Shown: positions 23,177-29,832 of the stretch, one piece after another
Numbering within the stretch: position 1 is the first letter of the stretch
How the letters are laid out: each line of letters starts with the position of its first letter
Assembly: GCF_011045215.1 (NCBI RefSeq)
Contig: NZ_CP049201.1
Length of the DNA: 64,000 bases
DNA from: Escherichia coli
GTDB taxonomy: Bacteria; Pseudomonadota; Gammaproteobacteria; Enterobacterales; Enterobacteriaceae
Direction: 5' to 3' (one strand)
Translations under genes and position numbers: made by a program
The notes under the pieces: model-generated
The model's database searches: none
What the model was told of the DNA's origin: nothing
The model's input: only the letters and a program-made list of their open reading frames with translations

Positions 23177-24225
23177 GGTTTTTATTGGGCGTGCTGATGC
23201 TGATGATCTCCGGCTCAGCGCTGGCGACCATCGATGTGTTGCAGTTTAAAGATGAAGCACAGGAACAACAGTTCCGTCAGCTCACTGAAGAACTGCGTTG
23301 CCCGAAATGCCAGAACAACAGCATTGCCGATTCCAACTCGATGATTGCCACCGACCTGCGCCAGAAAGTGTATGAACTGATGCAGGAAGGTAAAAGTAAA
23401 AAAGAGATTGTCGATTATATGGTGGCGCGTTACGGCAACTTCGTCACTTACGATCCGCCGTTAACGCCGCTGACCGTGCTGCTGTGGGTGCTTCCGGTAG
23501 TGGCTATTGGCATTGGCGGTTGGGTCATATACGCCCGCTCGCGGCGTCGGGTACGCGTGGTACCGGAAGCGTTTCCTGAACAAAGCGTGCCGGAAGGTAA
23601 GCGTGCCGGATATGTTGTTTATCTGCCGGGTATTTTGGTGGCGTTAATTGTAGCTGGCGTCAGCTACTACCAGACTGGCAATTATCAGCAGGTGAAAATC
23701 TGGCAGCAGGCCACGGCACAGGCTCCGGTGTTACTGGACAGGGCGCTGGATCCGAAAGCCGATCCGCTCAACGAAGAAGAGATGTCGCGCCTTGCGCTGG
23801 GGATGCGTACTCAACTGCAAAAAAATCCGGGAGATATAGAAGGTTGGATTATGTTGGGCCGCGTTGGCATGGCGCTGGGTAACGCCAGTATCGCCACCGA
23901 TGCATACGCTACTGCGTATCGCCTCGATCCGAAAAACAGCGATGCCGCACTGGGTTATGCTGAAGCGTTGACACGTTCATCTGATCCCAACGACAACCGC
24001 CTCGGCGGCGAACTGCTGCGCCAGTTGGTGAGAACGGACCATAGCAATATTCGTGTGTTAAGCATGTATGCGTTTAATGCCTTTGAGCAGCAGCGATTTG
24101 GCGAAGCCGTTGCCGCGTGGGAGATGATGTTGAAACTCTTACCTGCCAACGATACTCGCCGTGCGGTGATTGAACGTAGTATCGCGCAGGCGATGCAACA
24201 TTTGTCGCCGCAGGAGAGTAAATAA
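23173..24225 (+). CDS. ccmH: cytochrome c maturation protein CcmH (fused CcmH/CcmI type)
   Basis: 350-aa ORF with LRCPKC motif and C-terminal TPR-like region. Confidence 0.93.
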   Translation: MRFLLGVLMLMISGSALATIDVLQFKDEAQEQQFRQLTEELRCPKCQNNSIADSNSMIATDLRQKVYELMQEGKSKKEIVDYMVARYGNFVTYDPPLTPLTVLLWVLPVVAIGIGGWVIYARSRRRVRVVPEAFPEQSVPEGKRAGYVVYLPGILVALIVAGVSYYQTGNYQQVKIWQQATAQAPVLLDRALDPKADPLNEEEMSRLALGMRTQLQKNPGDIEGWIMLGRVGMALGNASIATDAYATAYRLDPKNSDAALGYAEALTRSSDPNDNRLGGELLRQLVRTDHSNIRVLSMYAFNAFEQQRFGEAVAAWEMMLKLLPANDTRRAVIERSIAQAMQHLSPQESK

Positions 24226-24262
24226 AAAGAGGCCCGATGGTGATGCCATCGGGCTATTTTTA
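24226..24262. terminator. bidirectional intrinsic terminator between ccmH and narP
   Basis: AAAAAGA-GGCCCGATGG-tgatg-CCATCGGGC-TATTTTTATT. Confidence 0.8.
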
Positions 24263-24907
24263 TTGTGCCCCGCGTTGTTGCAGGAACAGAATGGTGGCTG
24301 CCACGCGTGAGCGGACATTGAGTTTGCGCAGCAGATTGCGAATATGTACTTTTACTGTCTGCTCGGAAATATTCAACACCGAGGCAATCTGTTTATTTGA
24401 CAGCCCCTGTGCCAGCTCGTGCAGAACATCCAGCTCGCGCTCCGTCAGCACGCTGAAGGGATCTTCTTCCGCGCCAAACATTTCACGTTCATGTAAGTAC
24501 TGATTGACGCGTTCGCTAAAGACTTTGCTGCCTTTCGCTCCGGCACGAATCGCTTCCAGCAACACTTCCGGGTCGCTGTCTTTCAACAGATAACCGTCTG
24601 CGCCTGCGTCTATCAGCGCAAAGACATCGCTGGAGGCATCTGATACGGTCAGGATAATAATTTGCGCGGTAACGCCATCCCTGCGCAAGGCATTGAGGGT
24701 ATCCAGGCCACTCATACCTTTCATATTGAGATCCAGCAAGATCACGTCGATATCCAGTCTATTAGCCAGATCGATAGCACTCGCGCCGTCGCCTGCTTCG
24801 GCGACCACTTCAAAGCCAGGATCAAGCTCCAGTAACTGACGAACACCGCGTCGCATAAGTGGATGATCATCCACAATCATCACCTGAAAAGGCGTTGCTT
24901 CAGGCAT
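24260..24907 (-). CDS. narP: nitrate/nitrite response regulator NarP
   Basis: Begins MPEATPFQVMIVDDHPLMRRG… at the ATG at 24905-24907; receiver domain plus LuxR-type HTH. Confidence 0.95.
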   Translation of the reverse strand: MPEATPFQVMIVDDHPLMRRGVRQLLELDPGFEVVAEAGDGASAIDLANRLDIDVILLDLNMKGMSGLDTLNALRRDGVTAQIIILTVSDASSDVFALIDAGADGYLLKDSDPEVLLEAIRAGAKGSKVFSERVNQYLHEREMFGAEEDPFSVLTERELDVLHELAQGLSNKQIASVLNISEQTVKVHIRNLLRKLNVRSRVAATILFLQQRGAQ

Positions 24908-25226
24908 AGTAGTCTCCTGAGGTTTTATTAGAATCATTATGTTTGAGCGTAGCGTTGGTATCGCTACCAGGCGCGTGAATGTTACCCCATTTTATGTATG
25001 GACATGTAGTGAAAACTACAACCTTGTCGTTCGCTTTGGCATCATTTTCATTATAAAGACGGAATTTTGCATCAGCTTCTCATCAAGAAAAACAACTAAA
25101 AAATCAATCACAATACTTGTGCATTTCTTTAAACAGTTTTTAAAAACTGACTCCGGGTATGGAGCTATGGGTATTTTCTGTACCCAATGCTTTTAACTGC
25201 AATTAATTTCATAGGATGAAAGCTCA

Positions 25227-27818
25227 ATGCATCAATCTGGTTCTGTTTCTCTTTGTCGTTCCGCAATATCTGTTCTGGTAGCTACAGCGTTATATTCACC
25301 CATAGCATTGGCATCAACAGTTGAGTATGGTGAGACAGTTGATGGTGTTGTCCTGGAAAAAGATATCCAGCTGGTTTATGGGACCGCCAATAATACGAAA
25401 ATCAATCCTGGCGGAGAACAGCATATTAAAGAATTTGGTATAAGTAGTAATACTGAAATTAACGGCGGGTATCAGTACATTGAAATGAATGGCACCGCAG
25501 AATACTCCGTATTAAATGATGGTTATCAAATTGTTCAAATGGGTGGCGCGGCAAACCAGACTACCCTCAATAATGGTGTGCTACAGGTTTATGGCGCAGC
25601 GAATGATCCCACGATTAAAGGCGGGCGCTTAATCGTTGAAAAAGATGGGATTACCGTCCTTGCCGCTATCGAAAAGGGAGGATTACTGGAGGTTAAAGAG
25701 GGGGGATTAGCGATTGCGGTAGATCAGAAAGCAGGCGGTGCTATTAAAGCAACCACGCGGGTCATGGAGGTATTCGGAACAAACCGTCTCGGTCAGTTCG
25801 AAATCAAGAATGGTATTGCTAACAATATGCTGTTGGAAAACGGCGGAAGTTTGCGAGTTGAAGAAAATGACTTCGCTTATAATACTACTGTAGATAGTGG
25901 CGGCTTACTGGAGGTTATGGATGGCGGGACTGCAACTGGCGTTGATAAAAAAGCAGGCGGAAAATTAATTGTCTCAACGAATGCGCTGGAAGTGAGTGGT
26001 ACAAACAGTAAAGGCCAATTTAGTATAAAAGATGGTGTGTCAAAAAATTATGAACTGGATGATGGTTCCGGGCTTATTGTTATGGAGGACACGCAGGCCA
26101 TTGACACTATCCTCGATGAGCATGCCACTATGCAATCGCTGGGAAAGGATACTGGTACGAGAGTGCAGGCAAATGCGGTATATGATCTCGGTCGATCAGA
26201 TCAGAATGGAAGTATAACGTATTCCTCTAAAGCCATCTCTGAAAATATGGTTATCAACAATGGCCGCGCTAACGTCTGGGCTGGCACAATGGTTAACGTG
26301 TCAGTCAGAGGAAATGATGGCATTCTTGAGGTTATGAAGCCGCAAATAAATTATGCACCCGCAATGTTGGTGGGTAAGGTAGTGGTTTCTGAGGGCGCTT
26401 CTTTAAGAACGCATGGTGCCGTGGATACCAGCAAAGCGGATGTTTCGCTCGAAAATAGCGCATGGACCATCATTGCCGATATCACTACGGCGAACCAAAA
26501 CACCCGCCTTAACTTAGCCAACCTTGCGATGTCTGGCGCAAATGTGATTATGATGGATGAGCCAGTGACTCGTTCATCTGTGACGGCAAGTGCGGAAAAT
26601 TTCACTACGTTGACCACCAATACCCTGTCGGGAAACGGCAATTTTTATATGCGTACCGATATGGCGAATCATCAGAGCGATCAGCTCAACGTCACCGGAC
26701 AGGCAACAGGTGATTTCAAAATATTCGTTACGGACACCGGTGCCAGCCCGGCAGCAGGAGATAGCCTTACACTGGTAACGACGGGCGGCGGTGATGCTGC
26801 ATTTACGTTGGGCAATGCCGGAGGCGTTGTTGATATCGGTACGTATGAATATACCTTGCTGGATAATGGCAACCATAGCTGGAGTCTGGCAGAGAATCGC
26901 GCGCAAATTACCCCTTCAACCACTGATGTGCTGAATATGGCGGCAGCACAACCGCTGGTATTTGATGCAGAGCTGGACACCGTGCGTGAGCGTCTTGGTA
27001 GCGTAAAAGGCGTTAGTTACGATACGGCGATGTGGAGTTCGGCAATTAACACCCGCAACAACGTGACCACTGATGCGGGAGCTGGTTTTGAGCAAACATT
27101 GACGGGCCTGACGCTCGGTATCGATAGCCGTTTCTCCCGTGAAGAAAGCAGTACAATTCGCGGCTTGTTCTTTGGTTACTCTCATTCTGATATTGGTTTT
27201 GATCGCGGCGGCAAAGGCAATGTCGATAGCTACACCCTGGGGGCTTATGCCGGTTGGGAGCATCAGAACGGTGCCTATGTTGATGGAGTGGTGAAAGTTG
27301 ACCGTTTTGCCAACACCATCCATGGCAAGATGAGTAATGGGGCAACAGCGTTTGGCGATTACAATAGTAACGGCGCGGGTGCTCATGTTGAGAGCGGGTT
27401 CCGTTGGGTTGACGGATTGTGGAGTGTTAGACCCTATCTCGCCTTTACCGGCTTTACCACAGATGGTCAGGACTACACGTTATCAAACGGCATGCGCGCT
27501 GATGTGGGAAATACCCGGATATTACGCGCTGAAGCGGGAACGGCGGTAAGCTATCACATGGACCTGCAAAACGGTACGACGCTGGAACCCTGGCTGAAAG
27601 CCGCCGTGCGTCAGGAATACGCCGATTCTAACCAGGTGAAAGTTAATGACGATGGCAAATTTAATAATGATGTGGCTGGAACCCGTGGCGTTTATCTGGC
27701 TGGGATAAGGTCATCGTTTACCCCGACGTTAAGCGGTCATTTGTCAGTCAGCTATGGCAATGGCGCAGGGGTAGAATCGCCGTGGAATACCCAGGCTGGT
27801 GTGGTCTGGACGTTCTGA
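25227..27818 (+). CDS. yejO: autotransporter outer membrane protein YejO, apparently intact (863 aa)
   Basis: Signal peptide, passenger domain with internal ~55-aa repeats (GGLLEV..GG.A..VD.KAGG…), C-terminal beta-barrel ending …AGVVWTF. Confidence 0.85.
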   Translation: MHQSGSVSLCRSAISVLVATALYSPIALASTVEYGETVDGVVLEKDIQLVYGTANNTKINPGGEQHIKEFGISSNTEINGGYQYIEMNGTAEYSVLNDGYQIVQMGGAANQTTLNNGVLQVYGAANDPTIKGGRLIVEKDGITVLAAIEKGGLLEVKEGGLAIAVDQKAGGAIKATTRVMEVFGTNRLGQFEIKNGIANNMLLENGGSLRVEENDFAYNTTVDSGGLLEVMDGGTATGVDKKAGGKLIVSTNALEVSGTNSKGQFSIKDGVSKNYELDDGSGLIVMEDTQAIDTILDEHATMQSLGKDTGTRVQANAVYDLGRSDQNGSITYSSKAISENMVINNGRANVWAGTMVNVSVRGNDGILEVMKPQINYAPAMLVGKVVVSEGASLRTHGAVDTSKADVSLENSAWTIIADITTANQNTRLNLANLAMSGANVIMMDEPVTRSSVTASAENFTTLTTNTLSGNGNFYMRTDMANHQSDQLNVTGQATGDFKIFVTDTGASPAAGDSLTLVTTGGGDAAFTLGNAGGVVDIGTYEYTLLDNGNHSWSLAENRAQITPSTTDVLNMAAAQPLVFDAELDTVRERLGSVKGVSYDTAMWSSAINTRNNVTTDAGAGFEQTLTGLTLGIDSRFSREESSTIRGLFFGYSHSDIGFDRGGKGNVDSYTLGAYAGWEHQNGAYVDGVVKVDRFANTIHGKMSNGATAFGDYNSNGAGAHVESGFRWVDGLWSVRPYLAFTGFTTDGQDYTLSNGMRADVGNTRILRAEAGTAVSYHMDLQNGTTLEPWLKAAVRQEYADSNQVKVNDDGKFNNDVAGTRGVYLAGIRSSFTPTLSGHLSVSYGNGAGVESPWNTQAGVVWTF

Positions 27819-27880
27819 TAACAGACAATAAACAGGCCATGATGTGTCACGGTCTGTTTATCGAATTAAATGCAGATATA

Positions 27881-27913
27881 AAAAAACCAACCTTTACGGT
27901 TGGTTTTTTTTTG
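27881..27913 (+). terminator. intrinsic terminator downstream of yejO
   Basis: AAAAAACCAACC-ttta-CGGTTGGTT-TTTTTTTT. Confidence 0.8.
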
Positions 27914-27920
27914 GGATTTT

Positions 27921-27997
27921 TGGTCGGCACGAGAGGATTTGAACCTCCGACCCCCGACACCCCATGACGGTGCGCTACCAGGCTGCGCTACGTGCCG
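27921..27997 (-). tRNA. proL: tRNA-Pro (anticodon GGG)
   Basis: Minus strand reads CGGCACGTAGCGCAGCCTGGTAGCGCACCGTCATGGGGTGTCGGGGGTCGGAGGTTCAAATCCTCTCGTGCCGACCA, a cloverleaf with encoded CCA. Confidence 0.93.
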
Positions 27998-28071
27998 ACT
28001 CGTGGCTGTTAATACTACCGTTTTCCACACCGATTGCAAGTAAGATATTTCGCTAACTGATTTATAATTAA

Positions 28072-29832
28072 TCAGTTAGCGATAAAACGCTTCTCGTCTG
28101 TCAGCACTTGCAATAACAAACTTAACTGTGGTTTTTCATCTTTCACTCTTTCACCACGTAAGTTGTAAGTGCGGTATTTACCGTTATTGTTCAGCACCAG
28201 CGTCTTTTTCGGGGTGGTAATTGCCAGCGTATCGTTATCCGCTGCGGTAACCCAGTAATGACGGCGTTGAGGGTTGAACAAATCCTGACCTTGCGAATAT
28301 TCGCTGGCAGGTGTGCTGACATGTAGCAGGCGTTGCATCAGCGTCGTCATCAGATCGGTATGATCAGTCAGCGCATTAATACGCTGCGCCGGCGTGCCTG
28401 GCCAGTGAATCACTAATGGCACCTGTAGATGACCGTGGGACCAGTCAAAGGTTTCTTCCTCTTCGCTCAGCGGAATACCCCGACCGGCAGTGATAATCAC
28501 TACCGTATTGTCCAGTTTGCCAGAATCGCGTAGTGCATTGAGCACGCGGGTGATCTGGTCATCGACATTGCCTGCCGCCCGGCTATATTTCCGTGCAAAT
28601 GCCTGCTGATTGCTGTCGTCAATGTTAGTGCCATTGAAAGAGACCCACGAGAACCAGCGGTTATCTTCTTGTGCGTAGCGGCCCAGCCAGTTGATCCACT
28701 GCGTGGCGGTCTGCTCGTCGGATTGGGTGCGTACGCTCGGCATCGAGAAATCTGACAACAATGCCTGGCGATACAGCGGGCTGGTAAAGCCATCTGATGA
28801 GAATAACCCCAGCTGATAGCCTTGCTGATTAAGCGCAGTAATTAATGCCGCAGGCGTACGGGTCGACAGAATGCCGTCCATATAGCTCGGCGAGATGCCA
28901 TAGAACAGGCCAAAGATACCGTTGTCTGTAGTGTTGCCGGAGCTCATATGGCGCGTGAACGAAATATTTTGCTCAGCAAAACCTGCCAGCGCAGGCATCT
29001 GCTTCTCGAAGCGTGAGTAGTTCAGGCCATCGACAGTAATCAACAGCACATTCTGCCCGGTGCCCATATCGCGATAGCGCAGTTCGCTTAACGGATACTG
29101 AACGGAAACGGCGTCTGGATTACCTTGCTCAATAAGACGGCGTTGATACTCCTGCGCATCAAGCAGGCCATGCTTCTCAAGAAAACGTCGCGCCGTCATC
29201 GGGTACGAAAGCGGCAGGTTAGCGCGCTGCATGGTGATCGGGCGATAGAAGTTGGCATCGGCCCAGATATACACCACATGCGAGGCGATAAAGGCGATAA
29301 ATAAGAATGCGGCCAGCGGGCGCGCGAAGCGTCGACGACGCGTCAGGCTGCGCAGCTTTTGCCAGCTCCACGTCGCAAACACCAGTTCAAGCAATAAAAT
29401 AACCGGCACGCTGATGAACATCAGCTGCCAGTCGCGCGCCATCTCATTTTCGTCTGGGTTGATAACCAGTTGCCAGACGATGGGATTAAGATGGAGATGG
29501 AAACGAGTAAAGACTTCGCTATCGATCAGTAATAGCGTCATTCCCGCCGTTGCCAGAATGACGGACAAAAACCTCATCAGCCTCTGGGAGCCGACGATAA
29601 AGGTCAGCGGGAAGAGGATCAGCAAGTAGGTGGCGAACACCAGGAAGCTGAAATGGCCGATAATGCTTACGTAGGAATAAATGCGACCAGCAAGCGTGGT
29701 CGGCCAGTCGGCGATAAACAGGTAACGGCTGCCAATGACGAGCGAAAGCAGAATATTGAACAGTGCAAACCAGTGCCCCCAACTGACCATCTGGGAGACT
29801 TTTTCACGGTAGCGCTGACGATGAGTTACCAT
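28072..29832 (-). CDS. yejM: inner membrane protein YejM/PbgA (LPS/cardiolipin homeostasis)
   Basis: 586-aa ORF with N-terminal TM domain and periplasmic sulfatase-like domain. Confidence 0.95.
   Translation of the reverse strand: MVTHRQRYREKVSQMVSWGHWFALFNILLSLVIGSRYLFIADWPTTLAGRIYSYVSIIGHFSFLVFATYLLILFPLTFIVGSQRLMRFLSVILATAGMTLLLIDSEVFTRFHLHLNPIVWQLVINPDENEMARDWQLMFISVPVILLLELVFATWSWQKLRSLTRRRRFARPLAAFLFIAFIASHVVYIWADANFYRPITMQRANLPLSYPMTARRFLEKHGLLDAQEYQRRLIEQGNPDAVSVQYPLSELRYRDMGTGQNVLLITVDGLNYSRFEKQMPALAGFAEQNISFTRHMSSGNTTDNGIFGLFYGISPSYMDGILSTRTPAALITALNQQGYQLGLFSSDGFTSPLYRQALLSDFSMPSVRTQSDEQTATQWINWLGRYAQEDNRWFSWVSFNGTNIDDSNQQAFARKYSRAAGNVDDQITRVLNALRDSGKLDNTVVIITAGRGIPLSEEEETFDWSHGHLQVPLVIHWPGTPAQRINALTDHTDLMTTLMQRLLHVSTPASEYSQGQDLFNPQRRHYWVTAADNDTLAITTPKKTLVLNNNGKYRTYNLRGERVKDEKPQLSLLLQVLTDEKRFIAN

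Follow-up and report, generated by a model that had tools for sequence, protein, structure and literature searches.

The autotransporter gene yejO in an Escherichia coli chromosome: an intact allele compared with its relatives

Described relatives of YejO

Among solved structures, the best match to the passenger of YejO is antigen 43 (Ag43; Flu/Cah), both by sequence (phmmer, E 1.3e-36) and by structure (Foldseek, E 2.8e-22). The two proteins share a beta-helix built of rungs of about 19 aa, and the same plan of passenger, autochaperone, linker, and barrel; they differ in that the YejO passenger is shorter and that no phase-variation apparatus is evident. YejO is not an orthologue of Ag43, because the Ag43/Cah equivalog model (NF033177) scores it at 128.6 bits against a cut-off of 1200. 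Orthology with AIDA-I was rejected similarly (NF033176, 67.9 bits against a cut-off of 1200). As both models fall far below their cut-offs, any transfer of function to YejO is by analogy only.

With AIDA-I and TibA, the second of which is a PDB match to YejO at E 1.3e-25, YejO shares the AIDA-type repeat PF16168 and the strand-loop-strand repeat TIGR04415. The latter repeat is the target of O-heptosylation in AIDA-I and TibA. The genes aidA and tibA adjoin a heptosyltransferase gene (aah and tibC), whereas yejO is flanked by narP on one side and by tRNA-Pro and yejM on the other, with no such gene beside it.

Three Bordetella proteins resemble the other end of the molecule. The Pfam Pertactin family matches the YejO autochaperone region (E 7e-45), the beta-domain of BrkA superposes on the YejO barrel (TM 0.91), and Vag8 aligns with aa 460-860 (E 1.3e-35). 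The likeness to pertactin, BrkA, and Vag8 is limited to the C-terminal transport unit, and the N-terminal passenger of YejO is of the AIDA/Ag43 type.

In K-12, the gene itself is broken. In the K-12 derivative RR1, yejO (b2190 in K-12) carries a 1,195-bp IS5 after codon 22-23, and an IS5K near the start codon of K-12 yejO is on record in the literature (PMC11005336; PMC11677980). In an RNA-seq compendium, the IS5-broken K-12 gene shows near-zero expression and is among the least expressed genes. Most of the searchable literature that names yejO either uses a K-12 delta-yejO strain as a proxy for the wild type or concerns IS5.

The yejO gene and its surroundings

The stretch of DNA that we analysed, hereafter the window, comprises 64,000 nucleotides of E. 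coli contig NZ_CP049201.1 (assembly GCF_011045215.1). The gene order at the locus is that of K-12, namely narP, yejO, tRNA-Pro, and yejM. At the level of the gene and its flanks, the following features were placed:

24908..25226, no strand assigned: narP-yejO intergenic region, 319 bp, AT-rich and divergent (narP lies on the minus strand)
25227..27818, plus strand: yejO coding sequence, intact, 863 codons plus stop (list of open reading frames; match to WP_164475603.1)
25290..25293, no strand assigned: insertion site of IS5 in K-12, empty here (window aligned to the K-12 derivative RR1)
27591..27593, plus strand: codon 789, here TGG (Trp) (translation of sampled loci; allele-specific megablast)
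27880..27912, no strand assigned: hairpin with an A-run on one side and a T-run on the other, in the gap where yejO and tRNA-Pro converge (read from the sequence)
27921..27997, minus strand: tRNA-Pro (anticodon GGG), convergent with yejO (ARAGORN; Rfam tRNA, 54.9 bits)

The reading frame at 25227-27818 contains no internal stops, and its translation gives a product of 863 aa with the C-terminus VVWTF, which is an exact match to RefSeq WP_164475603.1, “autotransporter YejO.” The DNA is 99.6% identical to the annotated yejO of strain OkiPb01695, and the protein differs by 3-4 aa from the alleles of that strain and of O157:H7 strain Z852. Agreement with proteins named YejO, together with the position relative to narP, tRNA-Pro, and yejM, places the gene in the YejO orthologous group. 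Three lesions known elsewhere are absent here: there is no IS5, in contrast to K-12 YejO (b2190); codon 789 encodes Trp, in contrast to the stop (W789*) of 1,158 other genomes; and there is no deletion. Taken together, the feature is very probably an intact chromosomal allele of yejO, encoding a classical (type Va) autotransporter of E. coli.

The initial annotation, made from the letters of the window, had named the gene yejO and described it as one uninterrupted 863-codon frame ending in VVWTF, next to a tRNA-Pro and preceded by an AT-rich region. It had also stated that IS5 splits the K-12 copy. These points are all borne out, the first by the exact protein match and by a synteny like that of K-12, the second by the window frame and its translation, the tRNA by ARAGORN and Rfam, and the last by the insert seen in the RR1 alignment and in the literature, with none in the window. 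The upstream region has a G+C content of 36.4% over its 319 bp, against 51.5% across the window. A whole gene is not unusual: as many as 2,970 of the 5,426 complete genomes retain it at full length.

The intergenic region presumably holds the yejO promoter. The end of narP lies at the equivalent position in annotated genomes, and an AGGA is found 10 nt 5' of the yejO ATG. A consensus promoter scan of 24908..25226 gave no sigma-70 match on the plus strand, and an Rfam scan of 24000-29000 returned the tRNA as its sole match, with neither a riboswitch nor an sRNA 5' of yejO. Downstream, the stop codon is 102 nt from tRNA-Pro. The 66-nt stretch at 27860-27925, in which the hairpin at 27880..27912 lies, folds into a 13-bp stem (-16.9 kcal/mol, z = -3.2), and the hairpin is likely a bidirectional intrinsic terminator; “terminator-like” scan matches within the yejO frame were set aside as noise.

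In standard culture, this allele is probably poorly expressed, and silencing has in our view an even chance of being the case. H-NS, which the initial annotation proposed, may be the silencer, as the AT-richness upstream and the near-silent, IS5-broken K-12 allele would suggest.

Architecture of the product

The domains were delimited by profile searches, by an AlphaFold2 (AF2) model with a pLDDT of 86.4, which comprises a beta-helix, a helix at 563-592, and a 12-strand barrel, and by comparison of YejO with itself:

25227..25313, plus strand: predicted Sec signal peptide, aa 1-29, cleavage after ALA
25314..26906, plus strand: passenger domain, aa 30-560, right-handed beta-helix of the AIDA-I/Ag43 type
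25677..25898, plus strand: 74-aa module, copy 1, aa 151-224 (local alignment to copy 2)
25899..26120, plus strand: 74-aa module, copy 2, aa 225-298 (local alignment to copy 1)
26517..26891, plus strand: pertactin-like autochaperone region, aa 431-555 (Pfam Pertactin PF03212, E 7e-45; pertactin and Vag8 in the PDB)
26913..27002, plus strand: alpha-helical linker, aa 563-592 (AF2 helix, pLDDT >90)
27024..27815, plus strand: 12-stranded outer-membrane beta-barrel, aa 600-863, last residue F863 (Pfam, TIGR01414, AF2)

The N-terminus has R11 in its n-region, a hydrophobic core at aa 12-26 with the hydropathy maximum at aa 12-22, and A-L-A at positions -3 to -1 before S30, so that the predicted junction reads ALA/ST (aa 27-31). 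This call is rule-based, made from hydropathy and the -3/-1 rule alone; in the AF2 model, aa 1-28 have a pLDDT <50. At the other end, the barrel is recognized by Pfam PF03797 (aa 602-841, E 1.6e-44) and by TIGR01414 (370.6 bits against a cut-off of 16, E 1.2e-110). AF2 gives it 12 long strands, which Foldseek superposes on the beta-domain of BrkA (TM 0.91, rmsd 2.4-2.9 A) and on EspP (TM 0.82-0.85). Both the signal peptide and the C-terminal autotransporter barrel proposed at the outset are thus upheld, the first by a basic R11, hydrophobic core, and cleavage motif that fit the Sec type, and the second by the profiles and a predicted structure consisting of beta-helix and barrel.

Between these ends, the passenger is modelled as regular short strands with a period of 18-19 aa, and Foldseek matches it to Ag43 (E 2.8e-22) and also to pertactin. 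Sequence matches to YejO in the PDB are Ag43 (E 1e-36), TibA, Vag8, BrkA, and pertactin. The AIDA family PF16168 occurs at aa 184-245 (E 4e-24) and aa 257-315 (E 1.5e-21), with further weak partial matches, and the TIGR04415 repeat scores 62.5 bits against a cut-off of 30. The two PF16168 matches, TIGR04415, and the autocorrelation all point to imperfect beta-helix repeats of about 19 aa, as in AIDA-I, Ag43, and TibA. A match of the NCBIfam ccmA model (22 bits against a cut-off of 131.6) is noise.

Where the passenger had been described as having at least three tandem repeats of about 55 aa, we find instead two modules of 74 aa, superimposed on the 18-19-aa periodicity of the rungs. The two copies are identical at 36 of 74 aa (49%; Smith-Waterman score 175, z = 26 against shuffles), and the next best match within YejO has z = 2.3, so that a third copy was rejected. 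Both motifs of the earlier description occur exactly twice each, at aa 151/183 and 225/257. Under shift autocorrelation, the strongest peak is at 74 aa (z 12), followed by those at 18-19 aa (z 5) and 55 aa (z 4); because 55 = 74 - 19, the last of these comes from beta-helix rungs that cross-match. The DNA of the two copies is only 53% identical. Tandem Repeats Finder reported no tandem repeats in 25000-28000, a DNA repeat search at yejO yielded short two-copy chance matches and nothing more, and a self-BLASTP of YejO gave no off-diagonal match. The duplication is detectable at the protein level only, and it is old, rather than an array prone to slippage. In natural alleles of 789/790 aa, exactly one module is missing, in register.

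In short, the protein combines a signal peptide, a beta-helix with autochaperone, a linker, and a 12-strand barrel with a terminal aromatic residue, the features by which a type Va autotransporter is recognized in sequence and model. This architecture, read in the light of what is established for the family, suggests a route to the surface. YejO would pass the inner membrane by way of Sec, using its 29-residue signal peptide, and BAM would insert the C-terminal 12-strand barrel (aa 600-863, with its terminal Phe) into the outer membrane. The linker helix (aa 563-592) is predicted to sit in, and so to fill, the barrel pore. The passenger would be threaded outward, C-terminus first, and, folding on its pertactin-like autochaperone (aa 431-555), would form a beta-helix with rungs of 18-19 residues, in which the old internal duplication of the 74-aa block would be contained. 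Export of the passenger to the cell surface is predicted on this model. By analogy with Ag43, TibA, and AIDA-I, the closest solved relatives, adhesion or self-association between cells is the likeliest role of the exposed helix, at about even odds.

Distribution, inactivation, and competing readings

Of 5,426 complete E. coli genomes, 5,425 have the yejO locus; its place is in every case the one between narP and tRNA-Pro, and its DNA identity to the window gene is 95-99.6%. The initial annotation had called such adhesins variably present; here it is intactness that varies, at one site. Allele-specific 36-nt megablast searches, used to count the W789 and W789* alleles, put the full-length gene with TGG at codon 789 in up to 2,970 of the 5,426 complete genomes (at most about 55%) and W789* (TGA) in 1,158 (about 21%). 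Internal deletions of the B2 type account for about 21% of complete genomes and a one-module variant for about 5%. In B2/ST131, yejO has a double internal deletion plus a frameshift, and in strain USMARC-50748 it has an IS3 insertion. At least 45% of complete genomes have an inactivated gene, through several independent lesions, and lineages differ in how the inactivation came about. Wells et al. 2010, as cited in PMC3426408, reported that commensal and diarrhoeagenic strains have YejO, whose uropathogenic form is truncated.

Conservation along the protein is uneven. Compared with a 76%-identical relative of 862 aa, deposited under an Escherichia name, the barrel is 92%, the linker 88%, and the mid passenger 43% identical. 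Pfam assigns no family to this mid passenger (aa 299-430), which varies more than any other part of YejO. By sequence comparison, the transport unit appears to be under purifying selection.

Independent lesions in at least 45% of genomes show that E. coli can do without yejO, and the copy in the window may likewise be silent or in decay. The frame in the window could then be open by chance or recent history, in a cryptic gene that is being lost and has neither useful expression nor a selected function. The lesions (IS5 in K-12, IS3 in USMARC-50748, W789* in 1,158 genomes, and the B2/ST131 deletions and frameshift) agree with this, as do the place of the K-12 allele among the least expressed genes and the empty promoter scan. 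We nevertheless consider it unlikely. The 863-codon frame is open in thousands of genomes (the 90%-identity protein cluster has 16,859 members, mostly of 863 aa), and that of the 862-aa relative is open too; a barrel that is 92-99% identical beside a variable exposed passenger speaks for a working surface protein and not for neutral decay; and the low expression in K-12 comes from an allele that IS5 has severed from its promoter.

A second reading, which we think quite improbable, makes yejO a core-locus surface protein under antagonistic selection. Repeated, independent knockouts (IS5, IS3, W789*, B2 deletions; at least 45% of genomes) would go with a cost, for example if phages or colicins used YejO as a receptor or the immune system targeted it. 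Elsewhere, purifying selection with a hypervariable mid passenger and one- and two-module length variants would go with a niche benefit of the intact form, for instance in gut or bovine colonization or in aggregation.

It is very improbable that yejO belongs to an H-NS-silenced island at tRNA-Pro that was gained by horizontal transfer and is variably present. Such an origin would fit the low G+C content, which is 36% upstream and 43-45% in the 5' half of yejO (GC3 of 21-40%), compared with 52% in the 3' half, and tRNA-Pro does serve a phage-like element as an integration site in strain 2013C_3963. Against it stand the constant position of the locus in 5,425 of 5,426 complete genomes; the 76%-identical relative, which by its deposited name would also be of Escherichia; flanks in the window that show no integrase, no direct repeats of the tRNA end, and no further hallmark of an island; and a searchable literature that holds no paper connecting H-NS and yejO.

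An enzymatic or toxic passenger (protease, esterase, or cytotoxin) is scarcely credible, even granting that autotransporter passengers are functionally diverse and that the variable aa 299-430 lack a Pfam assignment, because Pfam and NCBIfam profile searches find no catalytic domain, whether peptidase S6/S8, GDSL, or another kind, and moreover the entire passenger models as an unbroken beta-helix without a globular head, and its neighbours in structure and sequence (Ag43, TibA, AIDA-I, and pertactin) are all adhesins.

We return, then, to an intact type Va autotransporter. The yejO of the window is an ordinary intact copy, annotated before, of a gene that is broken in K-12 and whole in about half of sequenced strains. 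Public annotation and the literature already cover the gene with its name and family and the K-12 disruption by IS5, and an intact yejO is common, so this is not a new finding. The searchable literature holds no study of YejO function, surface display, or regulation, and a strain with the intact allele is therefore a suitable one in which to begin functional work. The population figures given above for the nonsense allele (~21%), the B2-type deletions (~21%), and the one-module form (~5%) are a mildly useful by-product.

YejO is an intact autotransporter

The ORF under study is an already named and annotated gene, and the observation made in the initial annotation is real except for its repeat arithmetic. 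The translated product, which begins MHQSGSVSLCRS... and ends ...AGVVWTF, matches RefSeq WP_164475603.1 (QIF12994.1, "autotransporter YejO [Escherichia coli]") at every residue, and falls in a cluster of 16,859 sequences defined at 90% identity. The features at the locus are as follows.

25227..27818, + strand: yejO, 863 aa, a single open frame in the ORF list
27880-27912: hairpin with a 13-bp stem bordered by an A7 run and a T9 run, in the gap that separates yejO from the convergent tRNA-Pro
27921-27997, - strand: tRNA-Pro(GGG), 3' of yejO

Upstream lie dsbE/ccmG and ccmH (+ strand) and then narP (- strand), whereas yejM (- strand) is found beyond the tRNA gene. The hairpin resembles a bidirectional intrinsic terminator; a consensus terminator scan did not pick it up.

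Domain matches show the architecture.

Domain matches in YejO
aa 184-245: Pfam AIDA, E 4e-24
aa 257-315: Pfam AIDA, E 1.5e-21
aa 431-555: Pfam Pertactin, E 7e-45
aa 602-841: Pfam Autotransporter beta-domain, E 1.6e-44

NCBIfam adds TIGR01414 (E 1e-110) and the TIGR04415 repeat (62.5 bits, cut-off 30), with scores of 128.6 bits for the Ag43 equivalog NF033177 and 67.9 bits for the AIDA-I model NF033176, each against a cut-off of 1200. The neighbours returned by a PDB sequence search were Ag43, Vag8, TibA, BrkA, and pertactin.

An AlphaFold2 model built from an alignment of 64 diverse homologues (mean pLDDT 86.4) places a disordered signal peptide at aa 1-28, a continuous beta-helix up to approximately residue 560, a helix at aa 563-592, and 12 long strands at aa 600-862. 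Foldseek matched the passenger to Ag43 (E 2.8e-22) and the barrel to the BrkA beta-domain (TM 0.91, rmsd 2.4-2.9 A) and EspP (TM 0.82-0.85), so the autotransporter barrel proposed from sequence is upheld by both model and structural search.

Passenger repeats and divergence

The passenger had been described as carrying at least three tandem repeats of ~55 aa. Repeats are indeed present, although their number and length need correcting to two of 74 aa. Each of the two motifs proposed occurs exactly twice, and Smith-Waterman comparison with shuffled controls gave a single highly significant internal match, aa 151-223 versus 225-297 (score 175, z = 26), with no further internal repeat above z = 2.3. 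The two copies share 36 of 74 residues; being only 53% identical in DNA, they escape DNA repeat tools, which gave no sign of the duplication. In a shift autocorrelation of aa 30-330 the peaks fall at 74, 18-19, and 55 residues, and the earlier figure is explained by 55 being 74 minus one 19-residue rung. The basic period is this 18-19-aa rung of an AIDA-type beta-helix, with an older unit of some four rungs having undergone one duplication.

Where exactly one module has been lost in register, the resulting YejO has 789/790 aa, as in WP_000554212.1 from strain N780 (intact, 789 aa). The deletion removes 222 bp between the two modules, window 25728-25949. This segment is covered to at least 80% in 4,005 genomes, compared with 4,281 that have a near-full locus, leaving ~276 one-module genomes by subtraction. 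Three YejO variants differ elsewhere: P0001 (935 aa, ENA metagenome) has a 72-aa tandem duplication in the pertactin-like autochaperone (against window aa 474-545), whereas the barrel is 34 aa short in P0016 and carries a 10-aa duplication in P0020. Each is a single sequence and could be an assembly artefact.

An 862-aa relative, whose database entry bears an Escherichia name, is 76% identical overall, with 92% identity in the barrel, 88% in the linker, 78% in the autochaperone, and 43% in the mid passenger (aa 299-430), which is also the most variable part among E. coli alleles (77-79%). Such a gradient from conserved barrel to variable passenger is as expected for a functional surface-exposed protein. 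G+C climbs from 43% in the 5' part of the gene to 52% in the 3' part; GC3 rises from 21-40% in the first 300 codons to 52-54% across the barrel and autochaperone, a change that runs alongside the mid-passenger hypervariability.

Secretion, function, and regulation

The type Va secretion route is well established and serves as our basis for the YejO pathway. YejO would be exported by Sec, followed by BAM-dependent insertion of the barrel; the passenger would then cross C-to-N, either inside the barrel or beside it, leaving the linker helix in the pore, and fold vectorially from a nucleus formed by the autochaperone.

By analogy with Ag43, TibA, and AIDA-I, an adhesive or self-associating role may be envisaged; we found no experimental work on YejO function in the literature. 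Unlike aidA and tibA, which are adjoined by a heptosyltransferase gene, yejO has none beside it in the ORF list. Judged by base composition, the suggested H-NS silencing is plausible, the 319-bp narP-yejO spacer being AT-rich as claimed (36.4% G+C versus 51.5% window-wide); a literature search returned no supporting paper. Expression evidence for yejO comes from K-12 only.

The state of yejO across E. coli

The statement that the K-12 gene is split by IS5 proved correct: in the derivative RR1, where yejO is annotated as a pseudogene, a 1,195-bp IS5 follows codon 22-23 (window 25290-25293), in agreement with the literature (PMC11005336; PMC11677980). The proposal that the gene is variably present does not hold, as the 3.2-kb locus occurs in 5,425 of 5,426 complete E. 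coli genomes, at ≥80% coverage in 4,281. The remaining ~1,144 (~21%) are of the type seen in uk_P46212 (ST131) and DS566-1, with two internal deletions (~aa 158-493 and 645-855) plus frameshifts or stops. They match published reports of a truncated YejO in all uropathogenic genomes (Wells et al. 2010, in the account given by PMC3426408) and of its absence from ST131 (PMC5654935). These B2-type remnants keep ~aa 1-158, 493-645, and 855-863, or slightly less.

Eleven near-full-length loci were sampled. Seven are intact (H1, H2, H10, H14, H16, H19, H21), one carries IS5, and three (L007, L008, L009) share an identical nonsense change, W789* (TGG->TGA), in a frame otherwise open. To count this allele, 36-nt megablast queries were used in which the position of the variable base denies any mismatched sequence a 28-nt seed; codon 789 is TGA in 1,158 and TGG in 2,970 of the 5,426 complete genomes, and TGG in the window (27591-27593). 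W789* should be a null allele, because it takes away barrel strands 9-12 and the C-terminal Phe. Intact yejO is thus found in at most ~55% of complete genomes. It is common and nothing peculiar to the window, and no other single state of the gene is more frequent across the species. We consider it improbable that the recurrent inactivation results from antagonistic selection on a surface protein that carries a cost.

Many 771-aa database entries begin at codon 18, which is GTA in the window (25278-25280) and GTG in K-12-like alleles; these entries are a gene-caller start choice on W789* alleles and no separate protein form. In some strains, 2013C_3963 among them (L007 6387-8824), a phage-like element encoding a major capsid protein and small terminase has integrated at the tRNA-Pro 3' of yejO, a site that is unoccupied by such an element in the window.
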